UHGV virus genome: UHGV-0075699
Strand: one strand, 5' to 3'
Origin: a virus
DNA length: 19,854 bases
In this document: positions 1,792 through 9,742 of the stretch, one piece after another
Position numbering within the stretch: the first letter of the stretch is position 1
Layout: each line of letters begins with the position of its first letter
The notes under the pieces: model-generated
Told to the model about the DNA's origin: nothing
Databases searched by the model: none
The model's input: only the letters and a program-made list of their open reading frames with translations
Program-made: the position numbers and the translations under genes

Positions 1792-2117
1792 TATTGGCTC
1801 CGATGATTTCGATGGTTGCGGTTACGGCGTGAACGTTGCTTTTGGTTCTCCTCCTGAGGTAGGAGCTCACCCTCGCGCGCTGGTGGCTGCTCACTCACCC
1901 GAGCAGATGCGGGCGCTGCTGCTGCTGGTGCTGGTGCCTGTTTCGCTGGTGGTGTATATGGCTCGCCACCAGCTTCAATTTCGACCTTGAGATAAGGGGT
2001 CGTTTTCATGCTATGAGTGAAGTGAACCGTGCTGACAGGTAGGCCCATATAGGACTTGCCATCGCGTTCAAGGCTCACCAGCACCCCGTTAACGTATTCA
2101 ATTTTTAAACTCTGCAT
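1791..2117 (-). CDS. Hypothetical protein (108 aa) with Pro/Ala-rich linker and basic low-complexity C-terminus
   Basis: ORF with AAAGG-type RBS about 8 nt upstream of the ATG at 2117. Globular-looking N-terminal 55 aa followed by PPAKQAPAPAAAAPASA. Translationally coupled to 1372..1791. Confidence 0.45.
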   Translation of the reverse strand: MQSLKIEYVNGVLVSLERDGKSYMGLPVSTVHFTHSMKTTPYLKVEIEAGGEPYTPPAKQAPAPAAAAPASARVSEQPPAREGELLPQEENQKQRSRRNRNHRNHRSQ

Positions 2118-2135
2118 CGGGTTACCTTTTACGAA

Positions 2136-2160
2136 TAAAAAAGCCCCGCGTATGCGAGGC
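2136..2160 (-). terminator. Rho-independent terminator (minus-strand sense) upstream of the 2117 gene
   Basis: Minus-sense RNA forms GCCUCGC-AUAC-GCGGGGC (7-bp stem with one G-U pair) followed by UUUUUUAUU; plus coordinates 2143-2160 stem, 2136-2142 A-run. Confidence 0.5.
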
Positions 2161-2292
2161 TACTGGCTAAATATCAGGGTGTTACTGTGAAACCTCAGCG
2201 TGTAAGGTTACGGCTCAGCCCGTCCGTGGTGGGACACTGACGAACATGTAATGGCAGAGAACTGGCTGATTAGTTCTGCTTAAGGAAATGAG

Positions 2293-2754
2293 ATGGCAAT
2301 TAATTTACCAGTGTACTTTATGAACAGCAGCGGGGAATTTTCAACTACACCGCAACCAATGGCTGTACCCGTGATAGTTGTCACATTTGCAGCGGTTGAC
2401 AAAGATAATCATTATCAAATACCGAACCCCGAGAAACATGAATCAGCTATGGTTCTGATCGATACTGGTGCTACCGCCTGTTATATCGATAATGATTTTG
2501 CTGATGAATTAGAACTCCCAGTTACCAGCGAAATCCAAGTTCGGGGAGGAACTTCTACAATTAATTCAACAGCTCGCAGGGCGGTTATGAGCCTAACAAA
2601 CGACGGGCGCCTTTTTTCTCAAGAATTTCATGCAACCCCTTTAGTTAATAATGGGCGACACTTCAAAGCAATTCTTGGGATGGAGTTTCTTCAACACTGC
2701 TCATTCACGCTTGACTACAAAAATAACAAATTCGAGTTGTTGTTTAATAGTTAA
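2293..2754 (+). CDS. Retropepsin-like (clan AA) aspartic protease, moron gene
   Basis: Protein contains VLIDTGATACYID (D-T-G-A catalytic motif in hydrophobic context) and a C-terminal AILGMEFL motif resembling the retropepsin I-I-G-R-D-x-L element. AAGGAA RBS 5 nt upstream of ATG. Gene is visibly AT-richer than its flanks and opposite in orientation to the late operon. Confidence 0.65.
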   Translation: MAINLPVYFMNSSGEFSTTPQPMAVPVIVVTFAAVDKDNHYQIPNPEKHESAMVLIDTGATACYIDNDFADELELPVTSEIQVRGGTSTINSTARRAVMSLTNDGRLFSQEFHATPLVNNGRHFKAILGMEFLQHCSFTLDYKNNKFELLFNS

Positions 2755-2929
2755 GCCATGCCGGTAGAAATACTACTGTGGTTTCTGAGTGCGGCTCCCC
2801 CATCAGCGGCTTGCTATCACATGGTGCTTGCCGCTGTCCCCAGATATTAATCATTCTCAGATCTATAACCTCCACATCCTTGTTACATATTGCATCTTCC
2901 TGCATTTTAATGCACTGGGCTAAGGTCAT
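2744..2929 (-). CDS. Hypothetical small protein (61 aa), uncertain
   Basis: ORF with GAGGA RBS 4 nt upstream of ATG at 2929, just downstream of the Rz stop; no motif recognised. 3' end overlaps the convergent protease gene by 11 nt. Confidence 0.25.
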   Translation of the reverse strand: MTLAQCIKMQEDAICNKDVEVIDLRMINIWGQRQAPCDSKPLMGEPHSETTVVFLPAWLNY

Positions 2930-2968
2930 ATTGTCCTCGGTTATCCCCTAGTAGGGATTTTGATTATG

Positions 2969-3481
2969 TTATCCCTTAGCAGGGATAGAAGTTCTCACCG
3001 ATTTGTAAATCCGCTCACAGATCATTCCTGCGGTGTAGCGTTCGTCAGCGATTTCAGCATACCGTCGAGCTTCTTCTGCAAGGTCTCCAAGCATGTCGGC
3101 GAGCATTCCGGCGGTGGTGCCGGTTGTTTTGCTTCTGACGGTAGCGGCAAGACTTGTGGTGTGCTTTGCGGCGTCCAGGCGGGTGGCAAAGGCTTTTGCC
3201 TGCTGGCGCAGCTGGTTAACAGTGCCAGAGAGATTAGCAGCAGCAGCACGCGCTGCAGCGGTTTGAGCTTGAGCATCTTGTACGGCCTCATCGCGGGCGA
3301 TCAAGCGCCCCTGTTCAATCATCCGGGCGACGGTTTGCGCATTCACTGCCTGTGCCGATTCGTCAATATCACGTTGCAGCCATTTGGATTGCCACTGTGT
3401 ATCCTTCCAGAATGCACCTGCGCCAAATGCACCGGTGAGGATCAAACCAATCACAAAACCTTTTGCTTTAGCGCCCATCAT
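2969..3481 (-). CDS. Rz-like inner-membrane spanin (i-spanin)
   Basis: N-terminal TM segment ([18 protein letters not shown]) followed by an Ala/Gln-rich predicted coiled-coil periplasmic domain; located immediately after the lysozyme gene with overlapping start; a second gene is embedded in another frame. Start placed at the ATG at 3481 (ORF track begins at TTG 3484). Confidence 0.8.
3022..3276 (-). CDS. Rz1-like outer-membrane lipoprotein spanin (o-spanin), embedded in Rz
   Basis: Alternative-frame ORF wholly inside Rz; [23 protein letters not shown] has a signal peptide ending in a lipobox-like LLTSC, followed by a Pro-rich mature region ([18 protein letters not shown]). Classic embedded Rz/Rz1 architecture. 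Confidence 0.7.
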
Positions 3482-4007
3482 CAAGCCCCCAGCACGTCAG
3501 CGCACTTTCCTGATCACGGCGCGTTACCTGCCCGTAGCAGTTATTGGAGCGCACCCGGCAATCCTTCCCTCCGTCTTTAATCCACCAGCGAATCGCTTCA
3601 CATGCGCCTTTACGGTCGCCAGCGTTAATCCGCTGGTAGAACGTCGACGGGAAGCAGCGACCGGGACCGATGTTGTACGGACAGAATGAGGCAATGCCGA
3701 CTTTTTGCGGTGGGGTCAGTGGAACGTGGATATTCCGATCAACCCACGCCAGCGCCTTATCACGTTCGACAGCATTCACCTCATCGCATTTGGTCTGGGT
3801 CAGTTTCATACCCTGCGTGACGGGTTTACCATCAATACGCGTGGCACCGCGGCAAATAGTCCAGATCCCCTGGCTGCCATCGCGATACGCGGTCAGCCTG
3901 TTCCCTTCTTTCTCATCAAGGAACTGATCCATTAGAGTAGGCGCAGATGCACCGGCAGCAATGAGCGCCAGCATGGCAGCGCTGAGTTTTGTTTTCATCG
4001 ATGCCAT
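3468..4007 (-). CDS. Endolysin, GH24 lysozyme (T4/P21-type) with N-terminal secretion signal or SAR domain
   Basis: [23 protein letters not shown] matches the E..D..T catalytic triad spacing of T4-type lysozymes; the N-terminus [21 protein letters not shown] is hydrophobic and Ala/Gly-rich with an AxA site. Confidence 0.85.
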
Positions 4008-4008
4008 G

Positions 4009-4257
4009 TCAGTGATCCTGCGGTGGCGGGGTTATATATCCGCGCGCCAGGGCTTTTTCATATGCTCTGGTCTGGCGCCGCTTGAAATAGAAGTTAACGA
4101 AAAATGTCAGCAGGCCAATTACAAATCCTCCGATAACCGCTACCAGGTTCCAGTCGAGATCATGAATCCATTTGGCAAGACCACCCCAGCAGATGAGGCC
4201 GCCCGAAGTGCAATAACCCACTGCCGAAGCAATTTTGTCAGGCATGGTTCTGTTCAT
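4009..4257 (-). CDS. Class II holin, phage-21 S-like (pinholin-type) with dual-start motif
   Basis: Starts MNRTMPDKIASAVGYCTSGGLICWGGLAKW...: two in-frame ATGs 4 codons apart (4257 and 4245) as in holin/antiholin pairs. Two TM segments, the first Gly/Ala/Ser-rich, and a basic C-terminus. AGGAGG SD 7 nt upstream. Pattern resembles recalled S21 ([26 protein letters not shown]...). Confidence 0.75.
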   Translation of the reverse strand: MNRTMPDKIASAVGYCTSGGLICWGGLAKWIHDLDWNLVAVIGGFVIGLLTFFVNFYFKRRQTRAYEKALARGYITPPPQDH

Positions 4258-4311
4258 CCGACACCTCCTGTTGAGGTGCTGTGTGCGTGAAATGAAGTGA
4301 GGAATGAGGGC

Positions 4312-4364: not shown

Positions 4365-4772
4365 TTACCGGACAATTATTTCCATTTTTTGTCCTAGTAC
4401 CGATAGTGCTTTTTGAATGGTGTCGATCTTGGTGCTATGACCAAGAGACACGATTCGCTGTACCTCCTGAGGGCGCGTATTAATCATGCGGGCCAGTTCA
4501 GCGTTACTGGTATTGGTACTGACCAGGCGGTTTAGCAATAATACCTTCGCCGCCACGCTTGATGGCACTTCAACAAACGCCTCACCCTCTGCTGAAGGTG
4601 CGGGGATCTCCCGGCGGTCGTCAAAATAGAAATCAAACGCCGTAACCAGGGCATCCTGCGCCATTTCTAACGCTTCCTCCCTGGTTGCCCCTCCCGTCAT
4701 TGCCTCGGGGATATCTGGGAAAAATACCGCCCAGCCGGTTTCGTCATGCTCAAAATTTACCGGATATCTCAT
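4365..4772 (-). CDS. hicB: HicB antitoxin
   Basis: From the internal ATG at 4772 the protein reads MRYPVNFEHDETGWAVFFPDIPEAMTGGATREEALEMAQDALVTAFDFYFDD...LSVLGQKMEIIVR, matching the recalled E. coli HicB pattern (MRYPV...FVDIPEA...DAL.TAFDFYFED...). Directly downstream of hicA. Confidence 0.85.
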   Translation of the reverse strand: MRYPVNFEHDETGWAVFFPDIPEAMTGGATREEALEMAQDALVTAFDFYFDDRREIPAPSAEGEAFVEVPSSVAAKVLLLNRLVSTNTSNAELARMINTRPQEVQRIVSLGHSTKIDTIQKALSVLGQKMEIIVR

Positions 4773-4819
4773 ATTGATTAAGTGAATCTCCACGAGTACC
4801 AGCCCCGGAGGGCTGGTTT

Positions 4820-4996
4820 TTATTTGATACCGAGTTGCTTCAAAATTGCTTTTCTCAGCGGCTCCGGGATTTCCTTGCCCGGGTGTCTCGGCATTATCGT
4901 TTGCTTGCCGTTGAGGTAAATTTTTAAGTGGTTGGTACCATCTTTAAACTCTGCCCCTTGAGCTGCAAGCCAACGCCTGAACTCGCTTTGCTTCAC
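4820..4996 (-). CDS. hicA: HicA mRNA-interferase toxin
   Basis: 58-aa ORF (below the ORF-track size cutoff) found by manual translation: VKQSEFRRWLAAQGAEFKDGTNHLKIYLNGKQTIMPRHPGKEIPEPLRKAILKQLGIK, closely matching recalled E. coli HicA (MKQSEFRRWLESQG...NHLKL...MPRHP...EPLRKAILKQLGL). GTG start preceded by AGGAGGAGG. Confidence 0.85.
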   Translation of the reverse strand: MKQSEFRRWLAAQGAEFKDGTNHLKIYLNGKQTIMPRHPGKEIPEPLRKAILKQLGIK

Positions 4997-5225: not shown

Positions 5226-5945
5226 TTAATCACATTTTTCCGTTCTGACCTCTTCTATTTGCTCATGATATGTGTAGATGTTCTGCAATGCGTTGTTATC
5301 CATCTCAATGAAAGCCGTTTTAAGTCGTTCCCAATGCCCGGCATAAACCCTTTTCCAGGTTGAGCGGTCAACTGAAACCATACGCGCCAGAGCTGCGCCA
5401 GCGTAGGTTTTATACGTCTCATTATTCCGGGTCGCTGCAACCTCCTGGCCAGCCAGCCAGACCAGCCCCACAAGCTTTTTTATTACTCTCGATTGGATCG
5501 CCCTGCCTACTTGATAGTTCTGATATTCAGTCCAGACGTGTTCACACATCAGCGTCTGGTAACGGAAATTTAGATCGAAGCCATAGCAATAGCGCACCCA
5601 TGCCTGGTGATGTTCTTCCAGCAGGTTTACAGCGCGCCTCCACGGTGAATAACCGAATTCAATATCATTGATGGGCGGCATTGGCCGGCGGCGGCTGCGG
5701 GTCTCCATCACATAAACTGGAGTAGTCAGTGCCTTAACCACCGACGGGCCACAACCAATCCCCCCTTCCAGATCGACAAGATTGCGAGAGCACCGCGGAT
5801 TTTTATTCTTATCTGCCGGTGGGTTCTCGCTGAATGCCTCGAGTTGTCCCTTTGTTGCGCCGGATAAATCCAACAACGCTCGACGCACTTCAATACGGGT
5901 ATATTCCAGGTTTTGTAGGTTCATACTGCTCAACGCTCCATACAC
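5226..5945 (-). CDS. Probable late antiterminator Q (Qin/82-type Phage_antitermQ-like)
   Basis: 239-aa ORF located exactly where Q sits in lambdoid phages (after the nin-region genes, directly before a promoter-terminator pair and the lysis cassette). Assignment rests mainly on position and size; start could be GTG 5945 or ATG 5924. Confidence 0.5.
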   Translation of the reverse strand: MYGALSSMNLQNLEYTRIEVRRALLDLSGATKGQLEAFSENPPADKNKNPRCSRNLVDLEGGIGCGPSVVKALTTPVYVMETRSRRRPMPPINDIEFGYSPWRRAVNLLEEHHQAWVRYCYGFDLNFRYQTLMCEHVWTEYQNYQVGRAIQSRVIKKLVGLVWLAGQEVAATRNNETYKTYAGAALARMVSVDRSTWKRVYAGHWERLKTAFIEMDNNALQNIYTYHEQIEEVRTEKCD

Positions 5946-7006
5946 TATGCTTTTATAATTGCGCCGATCGCCATAGCTCGATCAAGAAAACGGAACAGCA
6001 GCTCCAACTGCGTGCCATTCTTCTCTTCAAAGGCGTTAACATCGGCATGTAGCTCGTCGTGGCACTCTCTGCACAGAGGAAACACGAAGAGATCGTGGGC
6101 TTTGGTTGCGGTACCGCCCATGCCATGGCCGATGACATGATGCGGATCGTCAGCTGGTCTGCGGCAGCATTCGCATGGTTGATGCTTAACCCAGTCGGTA
6201 TAAGTCTTGCTTACCCAGCGACGGCGCTTTGGCCTGAGCATGAAAGATTCCGGCGATTCCGGATCGGCAGTCAGCGCAAGCCCCTTCGGCTGGTCCTGGT
6301 GCGCCTGGACATTTTCGTTGCGCCTGCATTGCCTTGCTGTGCCTGCAGCTGGCAGTTTCTCCTGCAGAATGCTGGTGGCCGGTAAAGTAGGCCGGATATC
6401 GCTTTCTTTATACACCGACAGGAACGGCTCTTCAGGCAACCCTAGACCACGCTGCGCCATCGTCTCCGTAATGGCATCGGCTATACCTGACTGAACTGCC
6501 CACCAGCACAACTCTGCGATTGAAAGAGAGCGTTCTTTGTTATAACCGAGCCCGATCAGCACAGTATCTATTACCCAGTCGACTACATTACGAAGTGCCA
6601 GCGCCTCGATAGCTGGAGTCGACTGCTCCCGCAGTTTATTGTCACAATGCCAGCACACCAGCAACGCACCAGGCGGATGTCGCATCGTTACCATCTCGTT
6701 ATGGTGGTACTCGGAATGAGGGTACTGGCACCTCTTCAGCCGGAGAAACAGCCACCGTTCAAGCGCTGGCAATCCACCAGCAGCACGAATCACACGCTCA
6801 TCGGAAAAGAATACGTGCAGGCTGGAATCCTCCGCTAAAGGTTGTCGGGCATCAGGGACACGACCAGATGGCAAGCGGGCCATATTTTGTGGTTCAGCCT
6901 CGACTAAAACACGCCCGGCAGAAAACAGGTGCATCAGATCACGGCCGGGCTTAAATAGAACCACGCCGAGGCGTGGCACAATCTCAGGGGTGAGTAACGC
7001 TCTCAT
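5945..7006 (-). CDS. Cys/His-rich nin-region protein, DUF968-like with HNH-like metal-binding C-terminus
   Basis: C-terminal region HQPCECCRRPADDPHHVIGHGMGG...FPLCRECHDELH has paired CxxC and His clusters typical of HNH/zinc-binding nucleases; a second Cys cluster (LLVCWHCDNK) lies mid-protein. Start overlaps the MTase stop. Confidence 0.45.
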   Translation of the reverse strand: MRALLTPEIVPRLGVVLFKPGRDLMHLFSAGRVLVEAEPQNMARLPSGRVPDARQPLAEDSSLHVFFSDERVIRAAGGLPALERWLFLRLKRCQYPHSEYHHNEMVTMRHPPGALLVCWHCDNKLREQSTPAIEALALRNVVDWVIDTVLIGLGYNKERSLSIAELCWWAVQSGIADAITETMAQRGLGLPEEPFLSVYKESDIRPTLPATSILQEKLPAAGTARQCRRNENVQAHQDQPKGLALTADPESPESFMLRPKRRRWVSKTYTDWVKHQPCECCRRPADDPHHVIGHGMGGTATKAHDLFVFPLCRECHDELHADVNAFEEKNGTQLELLFRFLDRAMAIGAIIKA

Positions 7007-8853
7007 GCAACCTCACGCCGACCAGAAACACAAATTTCAGGAAGGTTTGCTCTTACAATCGCCTCAGCAAAGGGCGGCGGCACGGCGTTTCCGCACCTGG
7101 CGACTTGTTTCTCTTTCGAGTACCTCTTGCCGCGGTAGTCACGATCAATGATGTACCAGTCAGGGAATCCCTGAGCGCGGTAAAGTTCATGCGGCTGCAG
7201 CATGCGCATTCCGATATCAACAATGCGGTAAACAATACCCTTAATCGTCACCAGTTCGCTGACGCCAAAAGAATTCAGGAACTCTTTGACCTGATCCGCC
7301 CGGCGCTCGTCGTAATCATTAGCCGCCAGCAGCGCGCGAACCTCTCCAACATGCTGACCTCCAGCGGTGATTGTCGGCATTGGTTCACTGGTGCGCTGGC
7401 CATCGCGGCAGGTACCGCGCAGTTTAACCAGATGAGACGTAACCAGCGCATGGTGATCGACTGTGGTAACTGAGTGTGCAGGATCGTCCAGTCCGACGCC
7501 CGGGCCGGTATAGTTCCCGCCGTAGTGTTTCGCCAAAAACGCAGTTGTTACGGCAAATTTATTGCCACCAGCTACAACTGTTCCCAGCGGTTTACGCAGA
7601 TTTAGAACGCGCGGCGACTGCCCTACACGTTCGCCATACCCCATCTGAATAAGTGTGGCCGCGACAAGCTGTGACTTCCCCCCGCCGCCAGCGGTAATTG
7701 TTGCGCTGGGTTCATCCGCCCGGTGGCCGATGCTGGCGCCGAACTGACGCGCGATAACTGGCGCAACCAGGCAGGAGCGAGACTGTTTAAGGATGGTATG
7801 AGCGGGTTTATTCAATGGCCGCGGTTTCGCCTGGTACTCGCTACCCCCATTACCTGCCAGGAATGGAACCAACGTCGGTAACGCCAGCGCATAACCGTGG
7901 GTTTTGGTGATGGTTTGCAGGGGATCGGCCAGCGACTGTCCGCGGAAGCAATCATATTTACCGCGTGTTGTGGTGTGGTTGCATTTGACGATGAACGGAT
8001 TATCACTTTCGACGACAAACCGCTGGATGCCGCGCGCTATCCGTTTCAACGTGTTAATGGCCAGCGGCTTTTTACGGTCAAATATCGATGGTGCAGGAAT
8101 AGACCAGTCGATACACTCAGCAGCTGTCCGCCATGGTGCCAAATTTCCGGATTTAACTGCTGCGGATTTAGGGTCACCGTGAGTGACTCCCGGCCAGGCA
8201 ATGGGTTTATCGTCACAACGCATCAACATGAAGAATCGCTTGCGGATCGTCGGAGCACCATAATCACTGGCACGCAGTTCGCGATATTCGACCTTATACC
8301 CGAGGCCAGCAATCAGTCGTTTGGCTTGTTTGCCATCCGAGGATATGCCGAGAAATTCGCAACATTCGTACAGAGCCGGGTGATCCGCAGGTATACCAGT
8401 GGAAAGCATTCCAACAAATGCCAGGAAGGTTTCACCAGAACGCTTAGGATCAGGACGCATCTCACATGAAAGCAGCGGGCCCCACGTTTTAAATTCTTCA
8501 ACATTTTCGAGAGCCATTACACGAGGGCGAACATCCAATGCCCAGCGAACAGATACCCAAGCCAGGCCACGAATCTCACGTTTTACCGGTTTACTGCCGC
8601 GCGCCTTTGAATAGTGGGTACAATCCGGGCTGAACCATGCAAACCAGACAGCCTTTCCACCTGTCGCAGCGACAGGGTCAACGTCAAAGACGTTTTCACA
8701 ATAATGAAGCGTGTCCGGGTGATTCGTCCGGTGCATGGCCACGGCGTTTTCGTCGTGGTTAATGGCAATATCAACGCTGCGGCCGATCGCCATTTCTATC
8801 CCGGTAGATGCCCCACCACCGCCAGCAAAATTATCAACAATCAGCTCACGCAT
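7003..8853 (-). CDS. DNA (cytosine-5)-methyltransferase with large variable/target-recognition region
   Basis: Motif I DNFAGGGGAS (AdoMet binding), motif IV SPDCTHYS (catalytic Pro-Cys), motif VI ENV, C-terminal CGNAVPPP (motif X). About 400 aa lie between motif VI and the C-terminal motifs. Confidence 0.85.
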   Translation of the reverse strand: MRELIVDNFAGGGGASTGIEMAIGRSVDIAINHDENAVAMHRTNHPDTLHYCENVFDVDPVAATGGKAVWFAWFSPDCTHYSKARGSKPVKREIRGLAWVSVRWALDVRPRVMALENVEEFKTWGPLLSCEMRPDPKRSGETFLAFVGMLSTGIPADHPALYECCEFLGISSDGKQAKRLIAGLGYKVEYRELRASDYGAPTIRKRFFMLMRCDDKPIAWPGVTHGDPKSAAVKSGNLAPWRTAAECIDWSIPAPSIFDRKKPLAINTLKRIARGIQRFVVESDNPFIVKCNHTTTRGKYDCFRGQSLADPLQTITKTHGYALALPTLVPFLAGNGGSEYQAKPRPLNKPAHTILKQSRSCLVAPVIARQFGASIGHRADEPSATITAGGGGKSQLVAATLIQMGYGERVGQSPRVLNLRKPLGTVVAGGNKFAVTTAFLAKHYGGNYTGPGVGLDDPAHSVTTVDHHALVTSHLVKLRGTCRDGQRTSEPMPTITAGGQHVGEVRALLAANDYDERRADQVKEFLNSFGVSELVTIKGIVYRIVDIGMRMLQPHELYRAQGFPDWYIIDRDYRGKRYSKEKQVARCGNAVPPPFAEAIVRANLPEICVSGRREVA

Positions 8854-9742
8854 GGCTCACCCCCTGCATGCTTTCTACCAGTCCACCAGCAACAGTGATG
8901 ATCTCGCTGGTGGGCATACGCTCCAGCCACAGCTGGTTAATTTGCGCCATCAGCTTGTTTTGCTGGGACGGCTCCAGTCCTTCGGATCCTTCTACCTGTC
9001 GAAACACAAGCCCTACCTCCAGTGGCCAAATACGCGATTCCGTCTCTGGTAATTGCGTAGGCGTTGCGAGTGGTTCTACTGCCGCCGGCTGCGACATTAC
9101 CTGTGCTGGAGTATTGCCAACAGCAAACTGCGCCAGCATCATGAACGCTTGCCCTTTCCTTTCCAGATCCGCACGGTGGATATAGCCGAACCGCTCCCCG
9201 CGCCAGGCCTTATCAAACACGGCAATGGCGCCCGCAAAAAACGCGCTGGTGGGCTTTTGCTTATCATCAGCAGGGACAAACCACGCCGGGAGGTCGAATC
9301 CAATACGACCACGAATAAACATGATGTGATCGGCATCTTCTGGCCACCATGTTTCGCTCGGTGCTGCTTTGATGAGAAATACATAGCGCCCGCCCTTCTC
9401 ACGCTGCGCTGACGCGTAATTCATGATGTGCGTCATGCCAGTTATCGCCTGCTTTTCGTGGTACTGGGAGCGGCTATACGGTGGGTTGCCAAAGCCAGCG
9501 CCGCCAAGTTCTTCCAGACGAGCGGACCAATCTTGCGTCAGCGCGTTGTCTTCGGCGGTGAACCATACCGGGCATTTTGCGTTGCTATCGTCAGCAAACA
9601 GGTCCAGTACCAGCGGTCCAAACATTGCGTTAACGCCCCAGAACAGCAGATCAGGCGTGCGCCACTGATCACCAACGTCTTTCAGAAAATGGGACGGTGC
9701 AGCGCGCATGGCCGCCAGCGATTCACAATATGCATTCGTCAC
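8846..9742 (-). CDS. Phage-type DNA N6-adenine methyltransferase
   Basis: Contains GFGNPPYSRSQ (the NPPY motif of N6-adenine / N4-cytosine amino-MTases) with upstream AdoMet-binding-like segment. 8-nt overlap with the downstream C5-MTase gene. Confidence 0.8.
   Translation of the reverse strand: MTNAYCESLAAMRAAPSHFLKDVGDQWRTPDLLFWGVNAMFGPLVLDLFADDSNAKCPVWFTAEDNALTQDWSARLEELGGAGFGNPPYSRSQYHEKQAITGMTHIMNYASAQREKGGRYVFLIKAAPSETWWPEDADHIMFIRGRIGFDLPAWFVPADDKQKPTSAFFAGAIAVFDKAWRGERFGYIHRADLERKGQAFMMLAQFAVGNTPAQVMSQPAAVEPLATPTQLPETESRIWPLEVGLVFRQVEGSEGLEPSQQNKLMAQINQLWLERMPTSEIITVAGGLVESMQGVSHA

Follow-up and report, generated by a model that had tools for sequence, protein, structure and literature searches.

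The virus genome UHGV-0075699 is a 19,854-bp metagenome contig, here called the window whenever its full length is meant, and it carries a gene for a retropepsin-like aspartic protease that is turned backwards among the late genes of a phage. We are highly confident of three statements taken together: the window comes from a temperate, lambda-like phage of the Klebsiella/Enterobacter group, the protease has an intact D-T-G-A site that is invariant in its family, and its gene is the cargo of a two-gene cassette of about 0.8 kb, a "double moron" of the type formed by gp22 and gp23 of phage HK022, which lies between Rz and the next late genes. The complete explanation that we favour adds to this double moron with its intact protease a function that benefits the lysogen, and we regard that whole as evenly poised between right and wrong. 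Bacterial retropepsin-like proteases are almost unstudied, and literature searches on prophage retropepsins, PDC-M08 and DUF1327 returned nothing relevant and no study of a prophage-borne one. The backward placement of such genes in late operons from Klebsiella to Pseudomonas makes a role in the benefit of the lysogen, by exclusion or defence, directly testable.

A retropepsin-like protease gene in a discrete insert

The protease gene (2293..2754, + strand) encodes 153 residues, and its translation contains the two motifs that the original prediction, made from the letters of the window, had singled out: LIDTGATA at residues 55-62, with the catalytic D57-T58-G59-A60, and ILGMEFL at residues 127-133. 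The catalytic motif V53-L-I-D57-T-G-A60 and the second element I127-L-G129-M-E-F-L are thus both present. A search with hidden Markov models, proposed at the same time, was positive for the Pfam families of clan AA, with scores of 33.9 bits for gag-asp_proteas (PF13975; gathering cut-off 28.2), 32.9 bits for Asp_protease_2 (PF13650; cut-off 24.3) and 23.4 bits for RVP_2 (cut-off 20.3), but negative for TIGR02281 (clan_AA_DTGA), for which the protease scored 26.9 bits and the NCBIfam cut-off is 57.95. The predicted structure of the single chain has the retropepsin fold (predicted local distance difference test score, pLDDT, 90.8). By score, motif and fold the protein is a single-domain member of clan AA, in agreement with the earlier assignment and with the name "retropepsin-like aspartic protease" already given in the NCBI record. 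A single-domain retropepsin is active as a homodimer only. Direct reading of the N-terminus, MAINLPVYFMNSSGEF..., shows neither a signal peptide nor a lipobox.

Relatives that are 30-35% identical occur in Klebsiella, Enterobacter, Pseudomonas and one Rhizobiales genome, inside prophage late operons and on the opposite strand, and in eight further relatives the gene calls place the gene antisense to an unbroken run of late genes, in slots that differ. In Pseudomonas prophages the slot is between tail genes K and I/J, in one Enterobacter element between M and L, in Rhizobiales between head-tail connector genes, and in the others between lysis and terminase genes. The G+C content is 3-15 points under that of the flanks in all 18 loci examined. 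D57, T58, G59, A60 and G129 are unchanged in 63 of 63 relatives, down to about 20% identity. These proteins form a small clade of about 145-180 residues with an invariant catalytic site, and they are embedded in prophages in every context examined. No relative was found in sequenced phage isolates by tblastn against 50,697 phage records (E <= 1e-3), and megablast of 2100-3000 against complete E. coli genomes gave no match.

The close relatives make up two clusters at 90% identity. Such rarity would suit a protease gene that is a selfish or neutral cargo, or one that encodes a catalytically dead scaffold protein, and so would a degraded copy in one Enterobacter element and the absence of a known function from every cargo of this cassette type. 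The gene is nevertheless under purifying selection, with a ratio of nonsynonymous to synonymous substitution rates (dN/dS) of 0.26 against the 87% identical K. oxytoca copy, which, together with the Pfam scores above the cut-offs, also argues that the open reading frame (ORF) at 2293-2754 did not arise by chance. Given that D-T-G-A and G129 do not vary, that a confident model shows an intact fold and that one allele is found on 161 K. oxytoca contigs, we consider a neutral or dead protein improbable.

Some relatives deserve mention in their own right. Two Enterobacter "plasmids" of about 50 kb with phage gene content carry a protease copy that is 46% identical, and two Enterobacter elements share, in different slots, a 770-bp block of leader, protease and 53-residue ORF that is 94% identical, so that this cassette evidently moves as one unit. 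In the E. asburiae plasmid p16773_4 (L033 2941-3405) the cassette lies between tail genes M and L; stop codons interrupt the 5' part of the protease, which is annotated as 124 residues, and the leader and the 53-residue ORF beside it are intact. The Enterobacter plasmid NZ_CP091500, a circular phage-like element of 50 kb, has a reverse-oriented gene annotated as ClpP proteolytic subunit (L032 7009-7560) about 450 bp past the small ORF, between the cassette and the lysis genes. A lambdoid prophage with a distant family member (L010 7219-9196) carries two genes for ADP-ribosyltransferases like pertussis toxin S1 and Scabin between Q and the holins. Longer relatives (P0022, P0045 and P0061, of 260-285 residues; P0031; P0079) include tandem two-domain forms, which resemble the single-chain arrangement of pepsin, one fusion to a Dam methylase and one to a TPR domain. 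They were considered as informative fusions and set aside, as all are distant and uninformative for the protease clade.

In the window the cassette is a discrete insert (2163..2942), for which BLAST gives the limits 2163-2965 and inspection by eye a right end at about 2942, just past the ribosome-binding site of the small ORF. Klebsiella phage KpnBHU6 (L007) presents the empty site: it matches the window at 1956-2162 and at 2966-4278 with 33 bp between the two, and the block that has no counterpart there consists of the leader, the protease gene and a 61-residue ORF. The interval 2166-2960, to which attention had first been drawn as an AT-richer patch, is nearly equal to this missing block, and its base composition does deviate, with a G+C content of 0.42-0.46 over 2100-3000 against 0.55-0.57 in both flanks (0.44 for the cassette against 0.514 for the whole window). 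The same block is found with three sets of flanks: lambda-like Nu1/A in the window; an HNH/TerS/TerL packaging module in a K. oxytoca prophage (L001), where it also follows Rz; and, in five IMG/VR genomes (L012-L016), a different lysis cassette, unrelated to that of the window, downstream of which the block stands together with a remnant of Rz, its final 30 or so codons. Only window positions 2076-3061 are common to those five genomes. Absent from a collinear relative and deviating in base composition, the block is a moron, as had been suggested; low-G+C genes in reverse orientation with signals of their own are the published definition of prophage-expressed morons in HK97 and HK022 (PMC3594210).

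The surroundings are those of a lambda-like late region. On the - strand the order is Q, HicA/HicB, a P21-type holin, lysozyme, Rz with embedded Rz1, the cassette, a 108-residue ORF, a 139-residue ORF, Nu1 and the start of A; every gene adjoining the protease is on this strand and the protease alone is on the + strand, opposite to the late operon as originally read. Elsewhere the window encodes a CI-like repressor, CII, an antirepressor, two DNA methylases and an integrase, which identify a lambda-like temperate phage. The comparison with the slot of lambda bor holds, since in a lambda-type genome bor stands directly after Rz in the same orientation. The description of the slot as lying between Rz and cos needs qualification: the cassette does follow Rz directly, but the two late-strand ORFs of 108 and 139 residues (1372-2117, - strand; PHROGs 4567 and 2473, families of unknown function) come before cosN, which is an exact match to lambda (GGGCGGCGACCT) at 1255-1266.

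The leader and its exchangeable cargos

What ties the protease gene to HK022 is its leader. The 130-150 nt upstream of the gene are far better conserved than the protein: the window, K. oxytoca, Enterobacter and the L010 prophage share long identical stretches here, whereas their proteins are 31-46% identical. An nhmmer profile of the leader, built without any Klebsiella-type sequence, has a single match in the window, at 2138..2290 on the + strand (E 1.1e-25, 87 bits), and none in lambda (DE3 region), in KpnBHU6 or in the Pseudomonas loci. A 19-nt core of the leader, CCCGTCNGTGGTGGGACAC, occurs in at least 120 IMG/VR contigs. The leader is present in phages HK022 (NC_002166 13978-14119), HK633, mEp043, mEp213, ES18 (NC_006949 18095-18225), SPN3UB and others, as well as in 224 of 5426 complete E. 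coli genomes (about 4%), where it is always chromosomal with no annotation beneath it; in RefSeq it is likewise unannotated.

The gene that follows the leader in HK022 is gp23 ("srb", "moron gene product"), situated between tail genes I and J with the small gp22 convergent to it; in ES18 it is gp25, situated between tail genes M and L with gp24 convergent to it. Both pairs are annotated as morons. These cassettes and that of the window have in common a homologous leader of 150 nt (5' hairpin, stem P3, P4 loop and Shine-Dalgarno sequence; 63% identity between the window and HK022), a cargo antisense to the tail or late operon, a small convergent ORF that overlaps the 3' end of the cargo, and a position between late genes. 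In the window, too, the leader is directly upstream of the start of the cargo, the cargo is antisense to the late operon, and a small ORF on the late strand stands at the cargo's 3' end. The cargo itself differs, being a helical protein of 73 or 95 residues in HK022 and ES18 and a 153-residue retropepsin-like protease in the window; so does the slot, between tail genes in the former and after Rz in the latter, and the small ORFs are unrelated in sequence. HK022 also has a clear terminator after its cargo, unlike the window.

This arrangement extends well beyond these three. A census of 106 non-redundant leader-bearing cassettes yielded at least 20 unrelated cargo families of 65-211 residues, among which the 154-residue Enterobacter-type protease is the cargo at 18 loci. 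Of the 106, 103 have a convergent small ORF beside the cargo. In 58 cassettes the closest large ORFs to left and right are both antisense to the cargo, and in none are both on the strand of the cargo. The leader and the convergent layout may therefore be spoken of as a chassis, into which the protease is one of many cargos.

The leader begins with an A-run and a G+C-rich hairpin, followed by CTACTG..ATATCAGG, by a stem CAGGG/CCCTG and by UCAGCC; then come stem P3 (CGUCAGUG-GUGGGA-CACUGGCG), a variable linker, stem P4, AAGGA and the start codon. In the window P3 is formed by 2221-2228 paired with 2235-2242 and P4 by 2254-2262 paired with 2273-2279, with the conserved loop UGGCUGAUUA at 2263-2272, and the Shine-Dalgarno sequence AAGGAA is at 2282-2287 (all on the + strand). 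The stem of P4 varies in sequence and its loop, AUGGCUGAUUA, is conserved. RNAalifold pairs UCAGCC with GGCUGA of this loop, which makes CUCAGCC (2214-2220, + strand) the proposed arm of a pseudoknot.

The leader is probably folded, to judge from stems that covary across an alignment of 51 sequences; these were seeded with the exact 19-mer, so that the conservation of the core is partly by construction. Under a model of five helices 90.7% of the cells are paired, against 28-45% with the partners slid, and eight pairs change on both sides, against 2-5. The covariation score of 0.091 compares with 0.066 +/- 0.004 in shuffles, none of 500 being as high, by a statistic that ignores phylogeny. One position of P3 is a U.G pair in 37 of the 51 sequences and would be an A.C mismatch on the other strand; U.G pairs favour the + strand, and the RNA structure, if it is one, would be part of the cargo mRNA. 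Folded alone, the leader of the window is no better than its shuffles (z +1.1), and a search of Rfam 15 (E <= 1) gave nothing for window 1900-3100 or for the loci of HK022 and ES18. A general CsrA site was considered for the P4 loop and rejected, because its GGAUG is absent from the Klebsiella-type leader.

The Pseudomonas cassettes (L008, L017-L024, L026) have a different conserved leader in the 150 nt or so upstream of the protease, in the order CATCCAGCGTGGATGG, GCCAGTAAC, GTAGTAGC and a hairpin CCCCGGTCC...GGACTGGGG with apparent compensatory changes. In P. aeruginosa phage AUS531phi (L031 1850-1985) a leader of this Pseudomonas type precedes an unrelated cargo of 67 residues; the K-I tail slot is the same, and here too there is a convergent small ORF, with an overlap of 47 nt. 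CAGTAAC and AGTAGC, two motifs of the Pseudomonas leader, are found on the opposite strand of the enterobacterial one as well, which may be coincidence.

The small convergent gene and the signals around the cassette

The second gene of the cassette is the 61-residue ORF at 2744..2929, on the - (late-operon) strand, which runs towards the protease gene and shares 11 nt with it; 5 nt upstream of its start codon is a ribosome-binding site, GAGGA (2934-2938, - strand). The original prediction had pointed to this frame and its good ribosome-binding site and had suggested a partner or inhibitor. We take the frame to be a true gene, subject to purifying selection, and a part of the insert: it is missing along with the protease from KpnBHU6 and is kept with it in all three flanking contexts. 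That it might be no gene at all, and merely the antisense of the 3' untranslated region of the protease mRNA, is suggested by the lack of homologues outside the cassette and of any Pfam, PHROG or PADLOC family, by a poor single-sequence model (pLDDT 46) and by one antisense frame with a similarly low dN/dS of 0.32. Set against this, the frame is unbroken in L001 and L012-L016, with start, stop and length preserved and 70-72% amino acid identity, in lineages that differ at 37 nt positions; its dN/dS is 0.29 with synonymous changes enriched (Fisher p 0.0013), and the competing frame on the + strand is broken in L012. The well-placed GAGGA and the analogous small ORFs in nearly every cassette of the census point the same way, as does the small ORF of the Pseudomonas cassettes, where synonymous sites are saturated and dN is as low as 0.12. 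We think it unlikely, then, that the 61-residue frame is not a gene.

The small ORFs of other cassettes resemble it in position. The two Enterobacter elements have an identical 53-residue protein (WP_023303625) beside the protease, and the Pseudomonas cassettes have a conserved convergent small ORF of their own, of 64-79 residues with a 45-nt overlap. A shared N-terminal motif "MTLxQ/ER.." was looked for and is treated as unproven, the window version scoring 4.3 bits (4 of 2000 shuffles as high) and the K. oxytoca version 0.4 bits. The cassette ends about 13 nt past the start codon of the 61-residue ORF, and the Enterobacter 770-bp block 9 nt past that of its small ORF. With an edge so close behind the ribosome-binding site there is no room for a promoter, and the small ORF must therefore be read from the late transcript of the host phage.

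At the other end stands an intrinsic terminator for transcripts in the late direction (2136..2161, - strand), a G+C-rich hairpin at 2142-2161 followed by a T-run, which the terminator scan gives as 8 pairs, 6 of them G-C, and then TTTTTT. A hairpin occupies this position in 51 of 51 aligned leaders, its sequence differing with compensation; the authors of the ES18 genome annotated the equivalent one as the terminator of gene 24, and the empty-site phage KpnBHU6 has the terminator hairpin as well. Along the + strand the cassette thus consists of a late-strand terminator, the leader, the antisense cargo gene and the small late-strand ORF, and late transcription meets these in reverse.

Upstream of the protease a LexA box was rejected by eye, since CTG-N9-CAG has the wrong spacing, as were consensus sequences for sigma-54, sigma-E and sigma-32. 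Two hairpins of the form ATCCC-N6-GGGAT straddle the end of Rz, at 2943-2958 and 2971-2986. Both belong to the phage backbone and not to the cassette: they are present with loop changes in KpnBHU6 (L007 437-452 and 465-480), and the cassette was inserted directly beside them. The first copy is flagged as a weak terminator-like site on the + strand; in L001 its stem is kept and its loop changed.

Possible functions and known systems

For the function of the cassette we tentatively propose a model that we rate as less likely right than wrong. The protease would be expressed in the lysogen, from the leader of its own gene and without need of Q-dependent late transcription; this is the usual behaviour of morons in reverse orientation and what the architecture of the cassette suggests. 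It would act as a cytoplasmic homodimer that cuts one or a few specific proteins of the host or of a foreign phage, and the lysogen would benefit, most plausibly because other phages are excluded or aborted. During the prophage's own lytic growth, Q-dependent read-through from the other side would translate the 61-residue ORF, produce RNA complementary to the whole protease mRNA and its leader, and run on to 2142-2161, where the terminator would act on unmodified polymerase alone. Antisense RNA and the 61-residue protein may in this way switch off or counteract the protease and spare phage development.

Several observations weigh against this reading. No sigma-70-like promoter was recognised in 2130-2300 upstream of the protease on either strand, with relaxed thresholds too, and only weak terminator-like sites follow the protease gene on the + strand, unlike HK022 gp23. 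The damaged 5' end of the protease in one Enterobacter copy implies that the gene is dispensable. All cargos of the leader lack an assigned function in Pfam and PHROGs, one being DUF1883, and as no cargo of the chassis has a known function, the defence role stands by analogy only. Membership in the PADLOC system PDC-M08 was rejected: the protease domain has weak hidden Markov model similarity to its component B (E 1.2e-6), which is a likeness at superfamily level, 10 of the 63 relatives match B, weakly, and none of three neighbouring ORFs tested matches PDC-M08A or another PADLOC model. As for the small proteins, those of the Klebsiella, Enterobacter and Pseudomonas cassettes give no BLASTP alignment and an hhalign probability of 0.4%; in Pseudomonas the small ORF (dN 0.12) and the protease (dN 0.60) diverge out of step; and the commonest small ORF of the census (74 residues, in 57 cassettes) pairs with 12 cargo size classes. 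Together these speak against a cargo-specific inhibitor and in favour of a component of the chassis, so that the antisense part of the proposal is better supported than the inhibitor part.

The same facts bear on the idea that protease and small ORF are a toxin-antidote pair, for addiction or abortive infection, with the small protein or the antisense late RNA as the antidote. The two genes are convergent and overlapping and move as one block, and the late transcript is fully antisense to the leader and Shine-Dalgarno sequence and ends just past both. The conserved P4 loop, moreover, contains CUGA, a YUNR-like sequence; sequences of this type serve in antisense recognition. An antidote protein, however, would hardly be non-homologous between clades or, in its commonest form, be combined with 12 size classes of cargo, and with no visible promoter for the small ORF in the cassette the "antidote" would be absent from the lysogen. 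There is also no match to a toxin-antitoxin family, and HicAB is already nearby. We judge such a pair to be a rather unlikely explanation.

Alternatively, the protease might serve the lytic cycle of the phage itself, for instance in late infection, with a virion, lysis or host protein as its substrate. It does lie among late genes at every locus, beside lysis, packaging or tail genes, and, as noted, no lysogen-type promoter was recognised. Yet its gene is always opposite to the late operon, so that late transcription makes its antisense, its slot varies between phages, and the closely related KpnBHU6 does without it. The tblastn search found no relative in a sequenced phage isolate, the phage already has an S49 head protease of standard type, and a chassis with at least 20 unrelated small cargos is unexpected for a morphogenetic function. 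A lytic role seems to us quite improbable.

The model of a lysogen-made protease can be extended into a more far-reaching proposal, which we offer as a speculation with little chance of being right in full. The leader would be a cis-regulatory RNA not described before, with two hairpins and a pseudoknot from loop to upstream arm ahead of the Shine-Dalgarno sequence, and would be the hallmark of a large family of prophage cassettes that can be exchanged, each with a lysogen-expressed cargo and a late shut-off by small protein or antisense RNA. The retropepsin would be a defence protease against incoming phages, and the 61-residue protein or the antisense RNA would provide self-immunity, in a logic that we liken to that of BstA and aba.

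Among known systems, lambda bor shares with the cassette the slot directly downstream of Rz and the reverse orientation; Bor is an outer-membrane lipoprotein without sequence relationship to the protease, which has neither signal peptide nor lipobox. The best-studied bacterial retropepsin-like protease, APRc of Rickettsia (PDB 5c9b/5c9f), is 14% identical to the window protein. APRc belongs to an obligate intracellular bacterium, in which it is chromosomally encoded and anchored in the membrane, whereas the window protein is short, soluble and prophage-borne and has a family-specific N-terminal extension (P-I-x-F-M...G motif). Retroviral proteases and the Ddi1 domain are part of a polyprotein or of a ubiquitin-shuttle protein, and differ in this from the window protease, which is a free-standing gene of a bacterial virus and is assumed to form a homodimer. 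A functional precedent is gp15 of HK97, a small moron in a lambdoid late operon that protects the lysogen as an inner-membrane protein responsible for superinfection exclusion (PMC3594210); it has no protease domain.

The annotation of the protease and the moron concept, said to have been defined in a comparison by Juhala et al. in 2000, are already known. We could not find a description of a prophage-embedded retropepsin clade, of one leader that unites more than 100 cassettes with unrelated cargos, or of covariation in this leader. Classic laboratory phages (HK022, ES18 and the mEp phages) carry the chassis, as do about 4% of complete E. coli genomes; HK022 with E. coli K-12 offers an easy system for the study of moron expression and silencing. 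The chassis can thus also serve as a route to the functions of many small prophage proteins without a known role.

Some features of the neighbourhood may be added. The first 14 codons of the 108-residue ORF move with the cassette, window 2076-2117 being common to L001 and L012-L016. Between the Q antiterminator and the holin the late strand encodes a HicA/HicB toxin-antitoxin pair (4365-4996); in the K. oxytoca relative this pair has the opposite orientation, and an N6/N4 methyltransferase comes after it. Upstream of Q, a DNA-modification run (5945-9742) comprises DUF968, a protein of 616 residues with a C-5 cytosine methylase domain and a Dam-type adenine methylase of 298 residues.

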